Source of the DNA: Gammaproteobacteria bacterium
GTDB lineage: Bacteria; Pseudomonadota; Gammaproteobacteria; Eutrophobiales; Eutrophobiaceae
Length of the DNA: 64,000 nt
NCBI GenBank assembly: GCA_965116495.1
Contig: OZ220696.1
Location: 32,001 to 96,000 of the forward strand
Direction: 5' to 3'
In this document: one piece after another, positions 37,434 to 43,138 of the stretch
Layout: the number at the start of each line of letters is the position of its first letter
Numbering within the stretch: the first letter of the stretch is position 1
Translations under genes and position numbers: made by a program
The notes under the pieces: generated by a model
Told to the model about the DNA's origin: nothing
The model's database searches: none
What the model saw: the letters and a program-made list of their open reading frames with translations, nothing else

Positions 37434-38720
37434 ATGCATGACCTGCAACAACTGGCGTTAATCTGGGCCAGTGTATTTATCGCTTCCTGGCTGGCGGCCA
37501 GGACCAAGCTTACGCCGGTGCTGTACTTCCTCGCCGCGGGTTGCATCCTGGTAAACCTGGGCTGGTTGCCCACCCACGCTACGCCTTTCATCAGCGGGAT
37601 TTCAGAGGTGGGCATTATCCTGATCATGTTCGCCCTGGGGTTTGAAGCAAACCCGGGTCATTTTGTCCAAAGCGCCAAACGCAGCTGGGGGATTGCCCTG
37701 TTCGGCGCGCTGGCCCCGTTTATTGCCGCCTGGTCCTGTGCGCAATATTTCTGGGGGGATGACAAGATCGCCCTGTTGTGCGGCCTGACCATGACTGCGA
37801 CGGCCGTATCACTGACCATGGTCTCATTGAAAAGTGAAGGGCTGCATTTATCCGGCGCAGCCAACGGCATCATGACATCGGCAATAATAGATGATGTAGC
37901 CTCCCTGGTCCTGGTTGCCATTCTGATCCCCATAGCTACGGGGTCAGGGGACCTGTCCGTCACCGGGATAGGGATGATTCTGCTCAGAGCGCTGTTTTTC
38001 TTTGTCCTTATAGTCATTATTGCAGCCTGGATCATGCCCCACAATGCCGAGAGGGGATTGCTGGCCCGCTACCCCGTCCTGCGCCGCTTCGGCATGGTTA
38101 ACCTGCTTTCCATAGATAACGGCAGCAAGGCCACCCTGGGGATTTTACTGGTCGCCATCTCGATCAGCCTGCTTGCTCATCACCTGGGACTGCATCCGGC
38201 CATCGGCGCCTACATGGCGGGCCTGATCATCAAGGAGGAATATTTTCATTTCGGAAAAGGAGAGAACCGGGAAACCCTGTACCAGGACACCCGTAAAATT
38301 GTCGATGATGTTGCTTTCTCATGGATTGGCCCTATCTTTTTCGTTAACCTGGGCACTGAACTCGTGTTTGACGCGGGGATCTTCATTTCCGTCCTTGATG
38401 AGGCCCTGATCGTGCTTGGTAGCGTGTTTTTTGCCCAGGTGATATCAGCCTCTGCCGCGGCGCGTTACACCGGCAGTTTTAACTGGCAGGATTCCGTAAT
38501 GATAGGGTTTGGCATGCTGGGGCGGGCGGAACTGGCGTTCGTAGTCATGAATATCGCATACATACAGCACGGTCTCTTCACCGAGGAAGTATTTTATACT
38601 CTCATGATTACAATTTTCTGGTTAAACGTTGCCGTCCCCGTCACTATCAGGTTCTGGCGCCCATATTATGCGGGGGAAAAACCGCTACCCGCGATCTTGA
38701 GAATCAGGAACTTAGAATGA
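37434..38720 (+). CDS. Cation:proton antiporter (CPA2-like)
   Basis: Multi-TM; ATAVSLT, AIIDDV, PIFF..LG, GRAELA. Confidence 0.88.
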   Translation: MHDLQQLALIWASVFIASWLAARTKLTPVLYFLAAGCILVNLGWLPTHATPFISGISEVGIILIMFALGFEANPGHFVQSAKRSWGIALFGALAPFIAAWSCAQYFWGDDKIALLCGLTMTATAVSLTMVSLKSEGLHLSGAANGIMTSAIIDDVASLVLVAILIPIATGSGDLSVTGIGMILLRALFFFVLIVIIAAWIMPHNAERGLLARYPVLRRFGMVNLLSIDNGSKATLGILLVAISISLLAHHLGLHPAIGAYMAGLIIKEEYFHFGKGENRETLYQDTRKIVDDVAFSWIGPIFFVNLGTELVFDAGIFISVLDEALIVLGSVFFAQVISASAAARYTGSFNWQDSVMIGFGMLGRAELAFVVMNIAYIQHGLFTEEVFYTLMITIFWLNVAVPVTIRFWRPYYAGEKPLPAILRIRNLE

Positions 38721-38843
38721 TGGACCATGATGCGGCATTATTTATGTCGCTGTGTATAATTCCTAACCTGGCCAAGCCAGAACCAAACAGGATTCTTGAT
38801 CATTTTTCACAGGATTTTACTCGTAAGAGACTAATTCTTAATT

Positions 38844-39012
38844 GAAAGGTTGTTCGGGGAAATGACCTCCTGCCAGAACCCCGAACGGGTCAACCGCGTG
38901 GTGGTTTCGGCTAAGGGAGATGTCCCTCCACCACCACTACCAGTACTCCCTGTACTGATTTAGTCCATCAAGTTGAAATGTTTACGTAACAAGCTCCATC
39001 TTGTGGACAGGC
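38844..39012 (-). ncRNA. Candidate CsrA/RsmA-sequestering sRNA
   Basis: Minus-strand hairpins ACAAG-ATGGAG-CTTGT and CAGTAC-AGGGA-GTACTG, further ATGGA/AGGGA/AGGA motifs, terminal GTTCGGGG/CCCCGAAC stem then TTTC; no plausible ORF. Confidence 0.55.
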
Positions 39013-39018
39013 ATGGAA

Positions 39019-39064
39019 AGTCTACCTGGAAGGGAAGATGTTTGATGTGGGAAAAGTCACATTT
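39019..39064 (-). promoter_or_regulatory. CRP-type box with -10 element in class II geometry
   Basis: Minus strand AAATGTGA-CTTTTC-CCACAT (core 39046-61, centre 39053.5); TAGACT at 39024-19 implies +1 at 39012, placing the box at -41.5. Confidence 0.62.
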
Positions 39065-39108
39065 TGTTAAAAAAACAATAAAAATGTTACAGGCAGGCTG
39101 CAGGATGA

Positions 39109-39828
39109 CTATTTTTTATAAGTTCCTATCGTATCCTGGATCATGTTTTCAAGTTTTACCACGTCGTTTATTCGCAGCCAGTTTTTCCCTTTATAGATCA
39201 CGCCGGATGATGCGAGCTGCGTCAACTCCCGTGTGATAGCTTCCCGGTGCGTACTGATCCGGCTTGCGAGCTCAATATGCCTGGGCGCCGGTGATATTGT
39301 CGCGGTATTGGAATTATCCATATTCTGCAGGGCTAAACGGAGTAGTTCAGCATGGAGTCTGTTTCTTACGTCCAGGGAACTGAATTCAACCACACGTTCC
39401 GATAATAACCTGATCAGTTGGGCAAAGCGCGCCAGTGTACGGGTCATGATCGAAGGATAAAGCTGCATAAGCCAAAGAAAATTCTGCGCGGACATGGTCG
39501 CGAGAATGGTCTCTGACAAGGTTAAAACATAAGCGGACCGGGATTTGTTGTCCACGGCAGCGATTTCCCCGAACATTTCCCCCGCTACCTGGTCACGAAA
39601 AGAGATTTCCTTTCCTGAAGCGGAATAGATGGCCACTCTTACCTTACCGCTGATGATAAAATGAACATCGCTGTCAATATCGTTATGGGACGTGACGATA
39701 TCTCCCGCAGCAAATTTTTTTCCGTGGCATTTATCGGCAACCACCTTGCGATCGTTAAAGGAAAGGTCATAAAACAATTCTACTGCGGTCAGTGAGCCCG
39801 CCGTTATCTCAATGGATGCGTTTGTCAT
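39109..39828 (-). CDS. Crp/Fnr-family regulator with cNMP-binding domain
   Basis: GEMFGEIA...RSA cNMP pocket; HTH IELASRISTHREAITR carries the CRP-like RE...R recognition residues. Confidence 0.92.
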   Translation of the reverse strand: MTNASIEITAGSLTAVELFYDLSFNDRKVVADKCHGKKFAAGDIVTSHNDIDSDVHFIISGKVRVAIYSASGKEISFRDQVAGEMFGEIAAVDNKSRSAYVLTLSETILATMSAQNFLWLMQLYPSIMTRTLARFAQLIRLLSERVVEFSSLDVRNRLHAELLRLALQNMDNSNTATISPAPRHIELASRISTHREAITRELTQLASSGVIYKGKNWLRINDVVKLENMIQDTIGTYKK

Positions 39829-39913
39829 TTTTTCACCATATTCAAATTATTCCGTTAATCGTATCTTGCGTCGGGCTGGTTTTTTCCGTCTCCTGTACTG
39901 TCCCCACTATGGT

Positions 39914-41830
39914 TCAATGATTTTTCGGGTTTCCGGCCAGGGAGTAATGATGGTCAAGCAATTCCGGATGAAGTCTGACTTGCTCGGGAAAGTCTTCTTC
40001 CAGTACCCAGATAATCCGCTTGTGCAAATGTTGTCGTACGCGTTTCAATATGCTTTGATACGCCACCTCGCGCATCAATACCCACTTGAACGTGTAACAG
40101 GCGTCTTCCGTATCTCCTGTTTTTACCAGTAACCCGGACCTGCACAGGGTGTTCAATGCATAATCGAGCTTATCCCGGTTTTGTGTCCAGATCTTTGTGA
40201 TCAGGCGATAGCTGAATTCCTGCCCCAGGGCAGCAGCAATCTGTGCCACTTCACGGGAGATTGAGTGCTGGTCGAGTCGCGCCATCAAAACAGCATGCAC
40301 TTTTTTGGGTATTTCTAAATCTGCAGGGACTGGCTGTAAATTCCCGGTTCCGGCCGGCTGTGTCTGTAAAGCTGTCCTGGTTAATTCTTCCAGGAAGAAA
40401 GGGATGCCGTCGCCCCCGGCAATAATCCGGGAGATAAGTTGTGTGGAAATTCGTTTCTCTCCGACTACCTGGCGAATGAACAATTCTGCGGCAGACCGTT
40501 TAAGTGGGCGCAAGGAAATTCTTTCCACATGGTCGTGTTCAAACCATTGTGGCGGCGGTCTGAAATGAATCCGGTGCGATATTGCCAGCAGCACCGGTTT
40601 CCCCCTTATTTTCGGTATCAGCTTGTCGAGCAACCCCAGCGACACCGGATCCATCCAGTGCGCGTCTTCCAGAATAATCAAATGGGGTTTCGCTTCAACC
40701 GGCTTTGCTGCCGGATTTTTTTCCGCAACGGACTCCGTACGGGCTGGCTCGACTGAAGCCTGGATTTGCTCGAGACAAGAGTACAGGTTGTCCTTGTTTT
40801 GTAGCGGTGAGCAGCGGAAAATGAACTGGTCTGATTTTTCCAGGGAGACATATGTGCGCAGTGTCTCCAGCAGGTTTGATTTTCCTATACCCGTCTCACC
40901 GCAGACCAGCACTACCCGGCCATTCCGGTGCCGGGCCAGCTTCCATTGCCCGATGACACGTTTGAATTCCTTGTTTCTGCCTACCAGTCCCGCCGGGTTG
41001 ATTTGCCCGGTGGTATGCAGGCGCTGTTCCATATCGGCGCTATTAACTACCTGCCACAGCATCTGTCGTTTGCTGAATCCTGCTAATGCATGTACCCCGA
41101 TATTCGCCAGCCTGAACCGGTTTTGTATGATATTGCGGGTTTCGGTGCTTACGATTACCGTATCGGGTTGCGCCAGTGTCTGTAATCTTGCGGCCAGGTT
41201 GGGAGCCTCTCCGATTACGGTTTCCTGCGGCTCGGCGCCGGCCCCTATTGGGTTGCCCACCACGACTAGCCCTGATGCAATCCCTATGCGGATGGAAATC
41301 CTGTTCCCGTTCCCGTCCCCCAGTCGGGTTTCCCCGGATTTAATCGAGGCGAGCAAATCCAGGGCCGCGGATACAGCACGCTCCGCATCGTCTTCATGGG
41401 TCTGGGGATAACCGAAATAACTCATAACGCCATCACCCATATTGCACGCGACGAAGCCGTCGTATTTGTTAATTATTGCAATGCAGAGGTTCCTGTAGTT
41501 CTGGATAACCTGTAACAGTTCCTCGGGGTCCAGTCTTGTGGCCAGACCGGTGGAATTAACCAGGTCACAGAACATGATGGTGAGATAGCGGCGTTCAACC
41601 CGGTTGATGGGATCAATATTTTCAACCGGCCCGTCATCGATAATCCGGCTGTAACAGGCATCTTCTTCCCGTATTGTTCCGGGTAACGGGTACCGACAGT
41701 TAGTGCAAAACCGGGATGCCGGTTCCCTGCCCGCATCGCAGCAACCACATTGCAATACCAGTGACGCCCCGAACCAGGAGCAAAAGTATCGCTGTTTAAG
41801 GCTTTCGCGATGGCAAGGAATATATTCCAT
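39914..41830 (-). CDS. Class III nucleotide cyclase with N-terminal Cys cluster and AAA/NTPase domain; short, no TPR tail
   Basis: CGCC...FCTNC; MFCDLVNST, MGDG, GEAPNLAARLQ; P-loop GETGIGKS; EDAHWMD; start uncertain. Confidence 0.85.
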   Translation of the reverse strand: MEYIPCHRESLKQRYFCSWFGASLVLQCGCCDAGREPASRFCTNCRYPLPGTIREEDACYSRIIDDGPVENIDPINRVERRYLTIMFCDLVNSTGLATRLDPEELLQVIQNYRNLCIAIINKYDGFVACNMGDGVMSYFGYPQTHEDDAERAVSAALDLLASIKSGETRLGDGNGNRISIRIGIASGLVVVGNPIGAGAEPQETVIGEAPNLAARLQTLAQPDTVIVSTETRNIIQNRFRLANIGVHALAGFSKRQMLWQVVNSADMEQRLHTTGQINPAGLVGRNKEFKRVIGQWKLARHRNGRVVLVCGETGIGKSNLLETLRTYVSLEKSDQFIFRCSPLQNKDNLYSCLEQIQASVEPARTESVAEKNPAAKPVEAKPHLIILEDAHWMDPVSLGLLDKLIPKIRGKPVLLAISHRIHFRPPPQWFEHDHVERISLRPLKRSAAELFIRQVVGEKRISTQLISRIIAGGDGIPFFLEELTRTALQTQPAGTGNLQPVPADLEIPKKVHAVLMARLDQHSISREVAQIAAALGQEFSYRLITKIWTQNRDKLDYALNTLCRSGLLVKTGDTEDACYTFKWVLMREVAYQSILKRVRQHLHKRIIWVLEEDFPEQVRLHPELLDHHYSLAGNPKNH

Positions 41831-42070: not shown

Positions 42071-43138
42071 TCAGGGGCAGAATGCCTCATTGACCGCATC
42101 ACTCAGCCCGGCAAATTGTTCCAGGGCAGAGTTTGCAGCATTGATCTGTCCCCTCGCCCTGATCTCACTGTGTGTGCTGTGGCTGCTGAACCGCTCCGAG
42201 TCCCATGAGAAATAATCCTCGTTCAAGGCATCGGCACAGAAGCGGGCGGCCAACTCGAGGTATATCGTCAATGTTGCCGGCGGAATGGCGAGCCACTCCT
42301 CCCGTGTAAGCAACGTTCCAGCATGCCTGGCATAGCCTCTGAGCGCCGCGCGGCAGTGTGCCATTGAGAAATACCCGTCAGTCGTATCTTCGCCTGACGG
42401 GTTACACCAGGAACGCAGGGCGTCGCCCAGTTCCAGGTAAACCGGCATCTTGTTCAAGGTATCGAAATCCACCATGCATTTCACTTCCCGGTCATCGCTT
42501 GTGAAGATAAAGTTGGATATTTTCGGGTCACCGTGTACCAGCCTCCCGGCAACTGGGGGCAACCTGGGGAGTTGTTCCAGGCGCATCAGGATGGTTTCTC
42601 CCAGCGGTTTGATCGCGCTGTATCTTTTATGACTCCTGTTATTCTCCAGCGTGTTTTTCAGATGCAGGGTATGGCGGGACGTATCATGGGTGCCCGGCCG
42701 GGAGGTCTGTAACTCATAATCGAGCAGCGCCAGTCCGGTATGCAGGCGTCCCAGCATGGCGCCTGCCGCCCCTGCCTGCCCCGGCTGTTTCAGACGCTGA
42801 TGAATATTACCGCTGATATAACTGAATAAGCGCCAGATTTGGCCTGATTCCCGGTAAAATAGCATCCCGTGCCGGTCAGGCAGCAGCCTGGGGGTCAATA
42901 TGCCTGATTTCTCCAGGTGGCGGGTTACCACATCGATATCCAGGTTCACTTCAGGAGGAAACATCCTGTTTACAGCCTGCAGGATATATTCCGGTCCATT
43001 GACATCCATGACTCGATAGGTCTTGTTGATCAGGCCGCTTTCAACAGGTCGAACTCGGGCGGGACTGATTGCGTAAGCCGCGAGGACGTCACGGATATGG
43101 GCAGGTATCGGCGCTGTCATGACATGACAGAATCTCAC
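42071..43138 (-). CDS. Phosphotransferase, APH/choline kinase-like family
   Basis: GLINKTY, HGDPKISN, VDFDT. Confidence 0.85.
   Translation of the reverse strand: MRFCHVMTAPIPAHIRDVLAAYAISPARVRPVESGLINKTYRVMDVNGPEYILQAVNRMFPPEVNLDIDVVTRHLEKSGILTPRLLPDRHGMLFYRESGQIWRLFSYISGNIHQRLKQPGQAGAAGAMLGRLHTGLALLDYELQTSRPGTHDTSRHTLHLKNTLENNRSHKRYSAIKPLGETILMRLEQLPRLPPVAGRLVHGDPKISNFIFTSDDREVKCMVDFDTLNKMPVYLELGDALRSWCNPSGEDTTDGYFSMAHCRAALRGYARHAGTLLTREEWLAIPPATLTIYLELAARFCADALNEDYFSWDSERFSSHSTHSEIRARGQINAANSALEQFAGLSDAVNEAFCP

Follow-up and report, generated by a model that had tools for sequence, protein, structure and literature searches.

Two forms of CsrA control are distinguished in a genome survey: RNAs made under BarA-UvrY, and FliW. 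In the part of the survey used here, the genomes of its tree had at least one of the two (PMC4682653). UvrY binds an 18-nt palindrome, and its specific site lies far upstream (PMC4682653). The BarA-UvrY and GacS-GacA systems combine csrA with non-coding RNAs bearing GGA loops (CsrB, CsrC, RsmX, RsmY, RsmZ); the repeat of CsrB is CAGGA(U/A/C)G, with an ANGGAN loop (PMC7652899). CRP also touches this network: it represses CsrC in Salmonella (PMC7591399), and in Yersinia it acts on UvrY, which acts on CsrB. The nearest precedent for the locus described here is the CRP-McaS-CsrA system of E. coli. McaS is a CRP-induced sRNA which binds CsrA via two exposed GGA motifs (PMC13501541, PMC4098024); it is an Hfq-dependent auxiliary beside UvrY-driven CsrB and CsrC, and its activator is the canonical cAMP-CRP. 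McaS and Spot 42 are dual-use sRNAs (PMC4098024, PMC13501541). Crp-like proteins associated with class III cyclases are represented by Clr of Sinorhizobium meliloti (CyaD1, CyaD2 and CyaK) and CgrA of Rhodospirillum, with class I or class II spacing. Both belong to Crp cluster G, which is marked by activation through cAMP and/or cGMP. Among the direct targets of Clr is SMelC181, a small RNA of unknown function that it induces (PMC10127613).

The window, the whole 64,000-nucleotide stretch of DNA that was analysed, carries on its minus strand a cyclase ORF, a crp ORF, a Crp-type box, a -10 hexamer and a structured RNA gene, RNA1, in that order (Table 1). Coordinates and Pfam domains agree with this series as the original prediction gave it from the sequence; the box starts 44 nt past the crp stop, where about 45 bp had been estimated. 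An aph gene lies upstream throughout the congener regions listed, including those of four genomes in which no cyclase was found. There is no minus-strand ORF of at least 60 aa between the promoter and the convergent antiporter gene, which ends at 38720. The explanation favoured here, with a probability of roughly 0.6, is that Crp drives CsrA-decoy RNAs, with feed-forward onto other targets, in the place of GacA.

Table 1. Features of the cyclase-crp-RNA1 locus (positions are those of the window)
Feature	Position	Strand	Basis
APH-family phosphotransferase, upstream neighbour	42071..43138	-	Pfam
Class III nucleotide cyclase with AAA-type module	39914..41830	-	638 aa; Pfam, alignment to CyaB 3R5G, tallies over 17 orthologues
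Crp/Fnr-family activator, STHREAxxRE subfamily	39109..39828	-	239 aa; Pfam, alignment to CAP
Predicted Crp-type box TGTGA-N6-(C/T)CACA, centre -41.5 (class II spacing)	39043..39064	-	Sequence; congener conservation
-10 hexamer TAGACT, predicted +1 at 39012	39019..39024	-	Promoter comparison; one RNA contig, single study
RNA1, structured non-coding RNA, ~165 nt	38848..39012	-	Fold, alignment A1, covariation, strand test, covariance-model search
RNA1 5' stem-loop, conserved open loop at 38980-38993, possible pairing seed	38963..39009	-	Alignment A1, consensus fold
RNA1 GGA hairpin 2, predicted CsrA site; loop AGGGA in this genome, AGGAN in most relatives	38941..38957	-	
RNA1 GGA hairpin 3, weaker and variable, possible third CsrA site	38916..38929	-	
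RNA1 GGA hairpin 4 (CAGGAG), predicted CsrA site at the tip of the last long stem (38848-38895)	38863..38875	-	
Na+/H+ exchanger (antiporter) gene, convergent, downstream	37434..38720	+	Pfam; locus marker, outside the proposed circuit

The Crp protein contains a cNMP domain (PF00027) and a Crp helix-turn-helix (PF13545), which place it in the Crp/Fnr superfamily. In a genome-wide profile search its gene is the sole one with PF00027, and a PF00027 gene is found in all 18 good-quality congeners. The recognition helix, H-R195-E196-A-I-T-R200, aligns with R180, E181 and R185 of CAP, and R195, E196 and R200 are invariant in 21/21 congeners; this is the R-E-x3-R helix expected for TGTGA. The cNMP pocket (G87-E88, R97-S98) is likewise as predicted, with G-E...R-S kept in the same 21 congeners (one E to D). 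The protein falls outside canonical CRP/Vfr, scoring 58.8 bits on model NF008732 against a cut-off of 266. Its similarity to CAP (E 4.9e-13) is at least as high as that to Clr (E 1.8e-11), and a protein atlas places it in generic Crp/Fnr clusters, nothing more specific. The adenine-contact pair T127-S128 of CAP is Leu-Ser, not Thr-Ser; Leu142, at the T127 position, is Leu in 21/21 congeners and in all 14 sequences of alignment A2. Changes of T127 to Leu or Ile are found in E. coli CRP* alleles, which are thought to reduce the cAMP requirement (PMC2743635, PMC11445507). The shared Leu suggests that Crp may be relaxed in its ligand requirement; identity is only ~25-30%, and the effect of a single residue is not transferable at that distance.

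The box is a 22-mer, AAATGTGA-CTTTTC-CCACATCA, read from 39064 to 39043. TAGACT follows after 18 nt, and the box is centred at -41.5 if transcription starts at G39012, as predicted. The gap between box and -10 is 18 in 18 of 19 RNA1 promoters and 19 in the other; it was also read by eye as 18 in G014 and G017, giving the same spacing in 20/21. The -10 in relatives may be TATACT, TAAACT, CAGACT or TACGCT. The -35 is poor, so a generic sigma-70 scan is blind to this promoter. With a matrix derived from congeners, 19 sites are recovered in the genome, versus 2 in each of two controls; 12 of the 38 site orientations have a -10 at gap 37. Nine of the 19 sites lie within one 22-kb cluster, and many boxes recur as part of repeated units. 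Boxes at class I spacing precede a multicopy RNA family, RNA2, and comEA. The box thus heads a genome-wide promoter set, and RNA1 lies away from crp in 4/21 genomes; the notion of a dedicated local circuit is unsupported on both counts.

Congeners share ancestry, and counts of box conservation among them are not independent. A wider comparison covers 126 genomes of the family. The strict box is present in 24 of the 28 with a Crp orthologue, the pattern missing G010, G084, G109 and G115. Among the 98 genomes negative for the orthologue, 88 have no strict box, nine have one site, and G012, an incomplete congener, has 4. Pairs within a genus differ in the same way (6 boxes in G092 against 0 in G073; 2 in G080 against 0 in G023). 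The 79 metagenome loci around Crp homologues of non-congeners hold 65 box orientations, versus 2 in a reversed control; of the 65, 13 have a -10 at gap 18, and no other gap has more than 2. Crp very probably binds the box, judging from the helix and this co-occurrence. It likely also switches on the RNA genes, since conserved RNA genes sit behind a Crp-type box. A TfoX_N domain was found in just 1/5 genomes searched, and a co-activator of the Sxy/CRP-S type is therefore not general.

RNA1 matches the structured sequence of ~170 nt without ORFs that had been predicted downstream of the promoter. Its fold (-65.8 kcal/mol, z = -3.1) is equalled by 0/200 shuffles. Compensatory changes occur in 15/35 helix pairs, a number reached by 0/500 shuffles. 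A covariance-model search finds RNA1 in 21/23 congeners and in G092, a genome of another genus which was outside the training set (E 7e-7). The box and its spacing are kept with it among congeners, which answers the question of conservation at homologous loci. RNA1 is lost in G011. A genome-collection scan returned five congeners only.

The predicted ANGGA loops stand in part. Of the four ANGGA motifs in this copy, the two 5' ATGGA motifs are base-paired within a stem; just 4/21 homologues have the first of them. The conserved loop motifs are instead two CAGGA(N)G/AGGGA hairpins, kept in 19/21 each, and such loops agree with the CsrB repeat and its ANGGAN loop. In hairpin 2 the GGA is unpaired in 18 homologues and the stem shows compensatory changes; in hairpin 4 it is unpaired in all 19, with 7/12 helix pairs covarying. 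Hairpin 3 has GGA in 20/21, unpaired in 11/21. Compared with shuffles, the six GGA of this copy are not in excess (fraction 0.17); the four ANGGA are matched in a fraction of 0.01. In a genome-wide scan for clusters of ANGGA hairpins, RNA1 is one of ten windows that hold three hairpins, so motif density alone cannot identify it. From the conserved, unpaired GGA loops it is nonetheless probable, at about three chances in four, that RNA1 binds CsrA. Rfam has no Csr/Rsm or other model with a gathering-level match in the window, and nothing below E 1.5 for five RNA1 and RNA2 loci. A five-codon ORF lies in the 5' stem, with a stop in 15/21 homologues (by eye) and no ribosome site.

The box precedes other GGA-rich sequences as well. 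RNA2 is ANGGA-rich with four ANGGA sites, and the genome has three copies. Over 26 copies the middle base of the motif is A, C, G or T while A and GGA are constant. Its consensus fold does not discriminate between strands (-27.1 vs -30.1), and its strand therefore rests on the promoter and motif bias. In RNA runs, the copy at C1:1887560 is uncovered beyond a 67-nt piece at 87%. The comEA leader also carries ANGGA sites. In G084, G109 and G115, from another genus, the Crp orthologue is divergent from a box with gap 18 (-41.5) followed by an unrelated RNA. These RNAs have 7, 5 and 6 ANGGA per 120 nt, respectively, counts matched by fractions of 0, 0.009 and 0 of 2000 shuffles. A DNA search with the G115 RNA is uninformative: it matched nothing in five genomes of that genus, among them two with the analogous RNA. 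None of 79 distant metagenome loci has more than four ANGGA in 130 nt, and the RNA output is therefore confined to this family.

A csrA gene, whose presence the original prediction depended on, is found here and in 22/23 congeners. Its usual controllers were not found in the genomes searched. No UvrY/GacA above cut-off was detected in 37 family genomes, nor in 5 further genomes; 8 of 24 class-level genomes pass. Around uvrC, a uvrY-like match is seen at 0/4 loci and in the control, G041. FliW was not found in 5/5 genomes searched. The BarA search is uninformative because a UvrY-positive control was, like the rest of the five genomes, under the cut-off. These genomes, which come from uncultured Gammaproteobacteria, thus have csrA, with neither UvrY nor, where searched, FliW found.

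The favoured explanation joins these observations as follows. Crp would bind the TGTGA-N6-TCACA box and activate the adjacent ~165-nt RNA1, whose two or three GGA hairpins would bind CsrA and, on balance, titrate it. From class I spacing, Crp would also activate the RNA2 family and comEA. It would thereby transcribe its targets and also free them from CsrA repression, a dual action which would make a coherent feed-forward loop. Crp would hold the role that GacA/UvrY has in most Gammaproteobacteria, and it is likely that a Crp-family activator replaced GacA as the driver of CsrA decoys. The predicted sponge output is in this respect well supported by comparison, from Crp through the box to a GGA RNA; its confinement to a local circuit is not. 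A stronger version would have a CRP*-like, cyclase-independent Crp driving all decoys (three RNA types) and a comEA-type DNA-uptake feed-forward, as a third mode of CsrA control; this is put forward tentatively.

The adjacent cyclase raises a different possibility, namely that Crp requires its cAMP or cGMP and that the neighbouring RNA sponge is the dedicated output. The ORF encodes a class III cyclase (PF00211, E 3e-19) with an AAA_16 domain, and alignment to CyaB 3R5G shows the catalytic residues D89, D133, N211 and R215. Among 17 orthologues, both metal aspartates and the Arg are kept in 17/17 and the transition-state Asn in 16/17, also in G005, G006 and G011, which have a deletion of the AAA part. 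Such a coupling is also favoured by the contiguity of cya, crp and RNA1 in 12/23 congeners, by the intact Crp pocket, by the absence of a second class III cyclase from most genomes, and by a cyclase-like C-terminus adjoining the Crp orthologue in G092, G109 and G115. It is nevertheless unlikely. No class III cyclase was found in 6/23 congeners. G002, G008, G018 and G020 (94-97% complete) have no match to class I, class III or CYTH cyclases; aph immediately precedes crp in them, and crp, RNA1 and 6-13 perfect boxes are kept. Of the purine-specifying positions, Lys and Asp/Thr, the Lys also argues against it: it is present in 0/17 orthologues (C129 stands there in this genome). Thr is found at the other position in 11/17. 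A cyclase lies near the Crp homologue in 7/80 metagenome loci, many of them short, and the boxes are distributed genome-wide. Since some relatives without a cyclase keep crp, box and RNA1, the cyclase is probably dispensable rather than a necessary part of the circuit; it may tune Crp where both occur.

Three further readings concern RNA1 and its promoter. RNA1 might act chiefly by base-pairing, or by binding another protein, through its 5' loop, with the GGA motifs secondary (stability, part-time titration) and RNA2 the real sponge; control by Crp is common to this and the favoured explanation. The loop sequence is conserved though unpaired in the consensus, and it is still present where both main GGA loops are gone, in G004 and G017, two genomes that retain csrA and the RNA fold; dual use is established for McaS and Spot 42. 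However, a duplex scan against the start regions of ORFs of at least 150 aa in the genome singles out no target (the lowest energy, -19.4 kcal/mol, lies on a smooth tail), the G092 homologue keeps the GGA hairpins and little of the loop sequence, and RNA1 has no U-tail typical of Hfq-bound RNAs; this reading is somewhat improbable. The box might instead be read by a different protein, for instance a response regulator distantly akin to GacA, with crp a mere neighbour; this would fit the palindromic UvrY site and a spacer more constrained than in typical CRP sites. One candidate, a NarL-type protein encoded next to a kinase of its own, reaches 178 bits on the UvrY model, far under the cut-off of 280, and neither G011 nor G017 has it, though both carry boxes and crp. 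Box presence follows the Crp orthologue, the identical box and gap recur near distant Crp homologues, and the far-upstream site of UvrY is unlike -41.5; such a regulator is very unlikely. Still more improbable is that the RNA1 stretch has no transcript of its own and is a crp 3' trailer or the terminator region of the convergent antiporter gene. A contig of RNA run X2 (38910-39083) does cross the promoter, and a generic scan finds no intrinsic terminator within 38600-39300. Yet box, -10 and RNA move jointly away from crp in G004, G005, G007, G013 and G092, and the consensus fold is specific to the minus strand (-31.3 vs -6.0). One contig of run X3, from a single study, ends at 39012; the runs give contigs only, and start, strand and level are therefore unreadable from them.

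Against the described systems, the likeness to McaS is a Crp box before an sRNA with GGA loops, CsrA binding being predicted here. The differences are that UvrY was not found, that Crp belongs to a distant subfamily, that the RNA gene adjoins crp, and that three unrelated types of GGA RNA stand behind the box. With two or three GGA loops, RNA1 is nearer to McaS than to CsrB, which has 22 GGA; CsrB, RsmY and RsmZ are marked by at least five sites, a number that RNA1 falls short of and the G084, G109 and G115 RNAs (5-7 ANGGA) reach. Within the searches made, RNA1 also differs from these RNAs in its lack of an Rfam match, a UvrY/GacA driver and an intrinsic terminator. The original prediction knew of no described example. 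McaS is already a CRP-activated sRNA that titrates CsrA (PMC13501541), so that view stands for the present system alone: the literature searched (main texts without supplements, few subscription papers) held no description of a Crp-driven CsrA-decoy system.

Direct activation of decoys by Crp would be a concrete alternative to both surveyed controls of CsrA. The locus also offers two RNA families without an Rfam match, a compact regulon of fixed spacing under a Crp subfamily that is widespread but uncharacterised, a natural experiment in cyclase loss, and a predicted link between CsrA and comEA. The box of the genus is mostly TGTGAG-TTTT-CTCACA, in which it differs from that of Clr; the account of Clr used here reports no link to CsrA (PMC10127613). 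Boxes near G092 and several metagenome homologues match the Clr core, GTNNCNNNNGNNAC.

The locus carries, on the minus strand, what the original prediction described: a class III cyclase gene, a Crp-family gene, a Crp-type box (TGTGA-N6-(C/T)CACA) at -41.5, a TAGACT hexamer and an ORF-free stretch encoding a structured RNA (RNA1). Box, RNA and promoter position are also conserved at homologous loci of congeners. The box and the -10 are separated by 18 nt in 18 of 19 tabulated RNA1 promoters (19 nt in the other); two further promoters, inspected by eye, also have 18. RNA1 adjoins crp in 17/21 genomes. A scan of the RNA1 locus found no terminator downstream. Three short repeats just beyond the 3' end of RNA1 (~38726-38763, 38761-38787, 38786-38838) have further copies at other places in the genome. 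The whole locus is present twice in G019 (C1:3234 and 3445361) and G009 (C3 and C5), possibly through assembly overlap.

Features of the RNA1 locus and of box-associated elements (unprefixed positions, window; G000, its genome; C1, contig; L-numbers, extracted loci)
Feature	Position	Strand	Remarks
Class III cyclase-AAA gene	41830-39914	minus	
Crp-family gene	39828-39109	minus	
Box	39064-39043	minus	centre -41.5, given +1 = 39012
TAGACT hexamer (-10)	39024-39019	minus	
ORF-free stretch		minus	lies before convergent antiporter gene
APH-family phosphotransferase	42071-43138	minus	remains upstream of crp even where cyclase is gone
Rsm-like RNAs	L053:2347 (+), L054:2346 (+), L055:1394 (-)		5-7 ANGGA; divergent from Crp orthologue
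RNA2 paralogues	G000:C1:3772754 (-), 3357715 (+), 1887560 (+)		behind three of the best boxes; also L145, L173, L266
comEA-like gene	G000:C1:2924514-2924903	minus	box at gap 37; L270, L274-L277, L281
tRNA-like elements	G000:C1:3646958-3647097 (+), 3651473-3651612 (-), 3660381-3660520 (-)		L278
Repeat-rich cluster of short ORFs	G000:C1:3646896-3668594		box at gap 37-38 before each; L283-L285

RNA1 folds more stably than 200/200 shuffles (z -3.1). Its fold is minus-strand-specific, and it has no match in Rfam. DNA searches find the stretch in 19/22 congeners (G011, which has lost RNA1, by its box only) and in 0/38 other genomes. A covariance model built from 21 homologues, excluding the duplicate copies of G009 and G019, identifies it in 21/23 congeners and also in G092, which belongs to another genus (22/126 family genomes). 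Compensatory changes occur in 15/35 pairs, a level reached by 0/500 shuffles, and 94.5% of the structure is paired versus 32-52% in slid controls; the structure used in the covariation test was derived from that same alignment. The ANGGA loops originally described are partly borne out: GGA is retained in two hairpin loops (19/21) as CAGGA(N)G, the form of the CsrB repeat (PMC7652899), but the two 5' ATGGA motifs are paired within a stem. A third hairpin has GGA in 20/21, yet unpaired in only 11. In G092, the homologue lies away from crp, with a possible tandem second copy (E 0.17; L269:492-686, 779-901). The 5' stem also contains a five-codon ORF (38998-38981, minus), whose stop codon position is occupied by TAA, TGA or TAG in 15/21 homologues; it has no ribosome-binding site.

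The original prediction of a local circuit does not hold; the box network is a regulon rather than a cassette, heading sites genome-wide, a second RNA family (RNA2) and comEA. With a matrix built from 45 congener sites, 19 sites are detected in G000, against 2 and 2 in controls; nine of the 19 fall within a single 22-kb cluster rich in repeats. Of the 38 orientations of these sites, 12 have a -10 at gap 37, which places the centre at -60.5 (class I by the ranges in PMC10127613). RNA2 is a ~250-nt non-coding element with four ANGGA sites and a box at class I spacing. It is multicopy in many congeners, with tandem arrays in G006, G011, G018 and G008, and has no Rfam match. Across 26 copies the middle base of the four motifs varies while A and GGA are constant; RNA2 is a better candidate CsrA decoy than RNA1. 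Six genomes from two genera (G000, G002, G010, G012, G017, G092) have the box in front of comEA (TIGR00426, above cut-off). Its leader has three ANGGA motifs in G000 and none in G017; an RNA2-like tandem GGA pair is found in G000, G002 and G012.

The Crp gene is the sole PF00027 match in G000, and the domain is present in 18/18 good congeners. Its R-E-x3-R helix can be aligned to that of CAP and does not vary among congeners (21/21). Among 126 family genomes, a strict box occurs in 24/28 with a Crp orthologue; of 98 without, 88 have none, nine have a single site and one, a congener 83% complete, has four. As relatives are not independent, this is a pattern rather than a test. Next to 79 distant Crp homologues from metagenomes (some loci being near-duplicates), boxes occur in 65 orientations versus 2 in the control; gap 18 accounts for 13, any other gap for at most 2. 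In three genomes of another genus, the orthologue (45-47% identical) diverges from a gap-18 box and an unrelated RNA, with 7 (G084), 5 (G109) and 6 (G115) ANGGA motifs within 120 nt; none of the 79 distant loci has such an RNA. In G080 (C6; L056/L262), a gap-18 box lies between two tandem Crp paralogues.

The reading we favour (probability about 0.6) is that the box is bound by Crp, which thereby switches on RNA1 at class II spacing, and RNA2 and comEA at class I spacing; the RNAs would bind CsrA, releasing CsrA-repressed messages, possibly including comEA. That RNA1 acts chiefly by base-pairing, a reading which agrees on Crp control, is rather doubtful. Both main GGA loops are gone in G004 and G017, though csrA is retained; the 5' stem bears an open loop conserved in sequence, for which no target was found. 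Slightly less probable still is an obligatory cyclase cassette. The cyclase, present in 17/23 congeners, was originally taken as part of the circuit, but it is probably dispensable: in G002, G008, G018 and G020 crp directly follows the phosphotransferase gene, class I and CYTH cyclases were also not found, and RNA1 persists with 6-13 perfect boxes.

Another regulator reading the box is very unlikely; G011 and G017 lack the sole NarL-type regulator yet have boxes. Least probable is that RNA1 has no independent transcript: a contig of RNA run X2 (38910-39083) does read through the promoter, but RNA1 and box travel together away from crp in four genomes (G004, G005, G007, G013). In run X3 one contig covers only 38868-39012, stopping at the predicted +1; these data are contigs, and the end at +1 comes from one study only. 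One run containing RNA1 is labelled sponge metagenome.

In its working, the proposed Crp circuit would resemble those of Gac/Rsm and Csr. It departs from them in its activator and its number of sites, and in that neither an Rfam match nor a terminator was found. In PMC4682653, control of CsrA is divided between two alternatives, BarA-UvrY and FliW. No UvrY match passes the cut-off in 37 family genomes (8/24 class-level genomes pass) or in five additional genomes or loci, nor is there a uvrY-like match around uvrC in four genomes, in contrast to the positive control genome; FliW is found in 0/5 tested. The nearest precedent is McaS, which is induced by CRP and titrates CsrA via two GGA motifs (PMC13501541, PMC4098024, PMC5207318). 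CRP represses CsrC in Salmonella (PMC7591399), and Clr turns on an sRNA that has no assigned function (PMC10127613); PMC11882849 contributes nothing on Crp activation. Among the literature listings searched and the papers cited here, none was found to describe Crp in the place of GacA.

Where present, the cyclase keeps its catalytic D, D, N and R; the purine lysine is missing in 17/17, and three genomes have a deletion of the AAA part. Crp keeps its phosphate pocket and has Leu at the CAP T127 position in all sequences; this residue occurs in CRP* alleles, where it may reduce the need for cAMP (PMC2743635, PMC11445507). Crp may act without ligand or obtain one from another source.

The short ORFs of the repeat-rich cluster encode a hydrophobic N-terminal helix followed by repeats, and similar arrays are found in G006 and G008. 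Three elements, which received no ARAGORN call and which we take to resemble tRNA-Leu, are each preceded by a hairpin and a box at gap 37; their anticodon-loop sequences differ.
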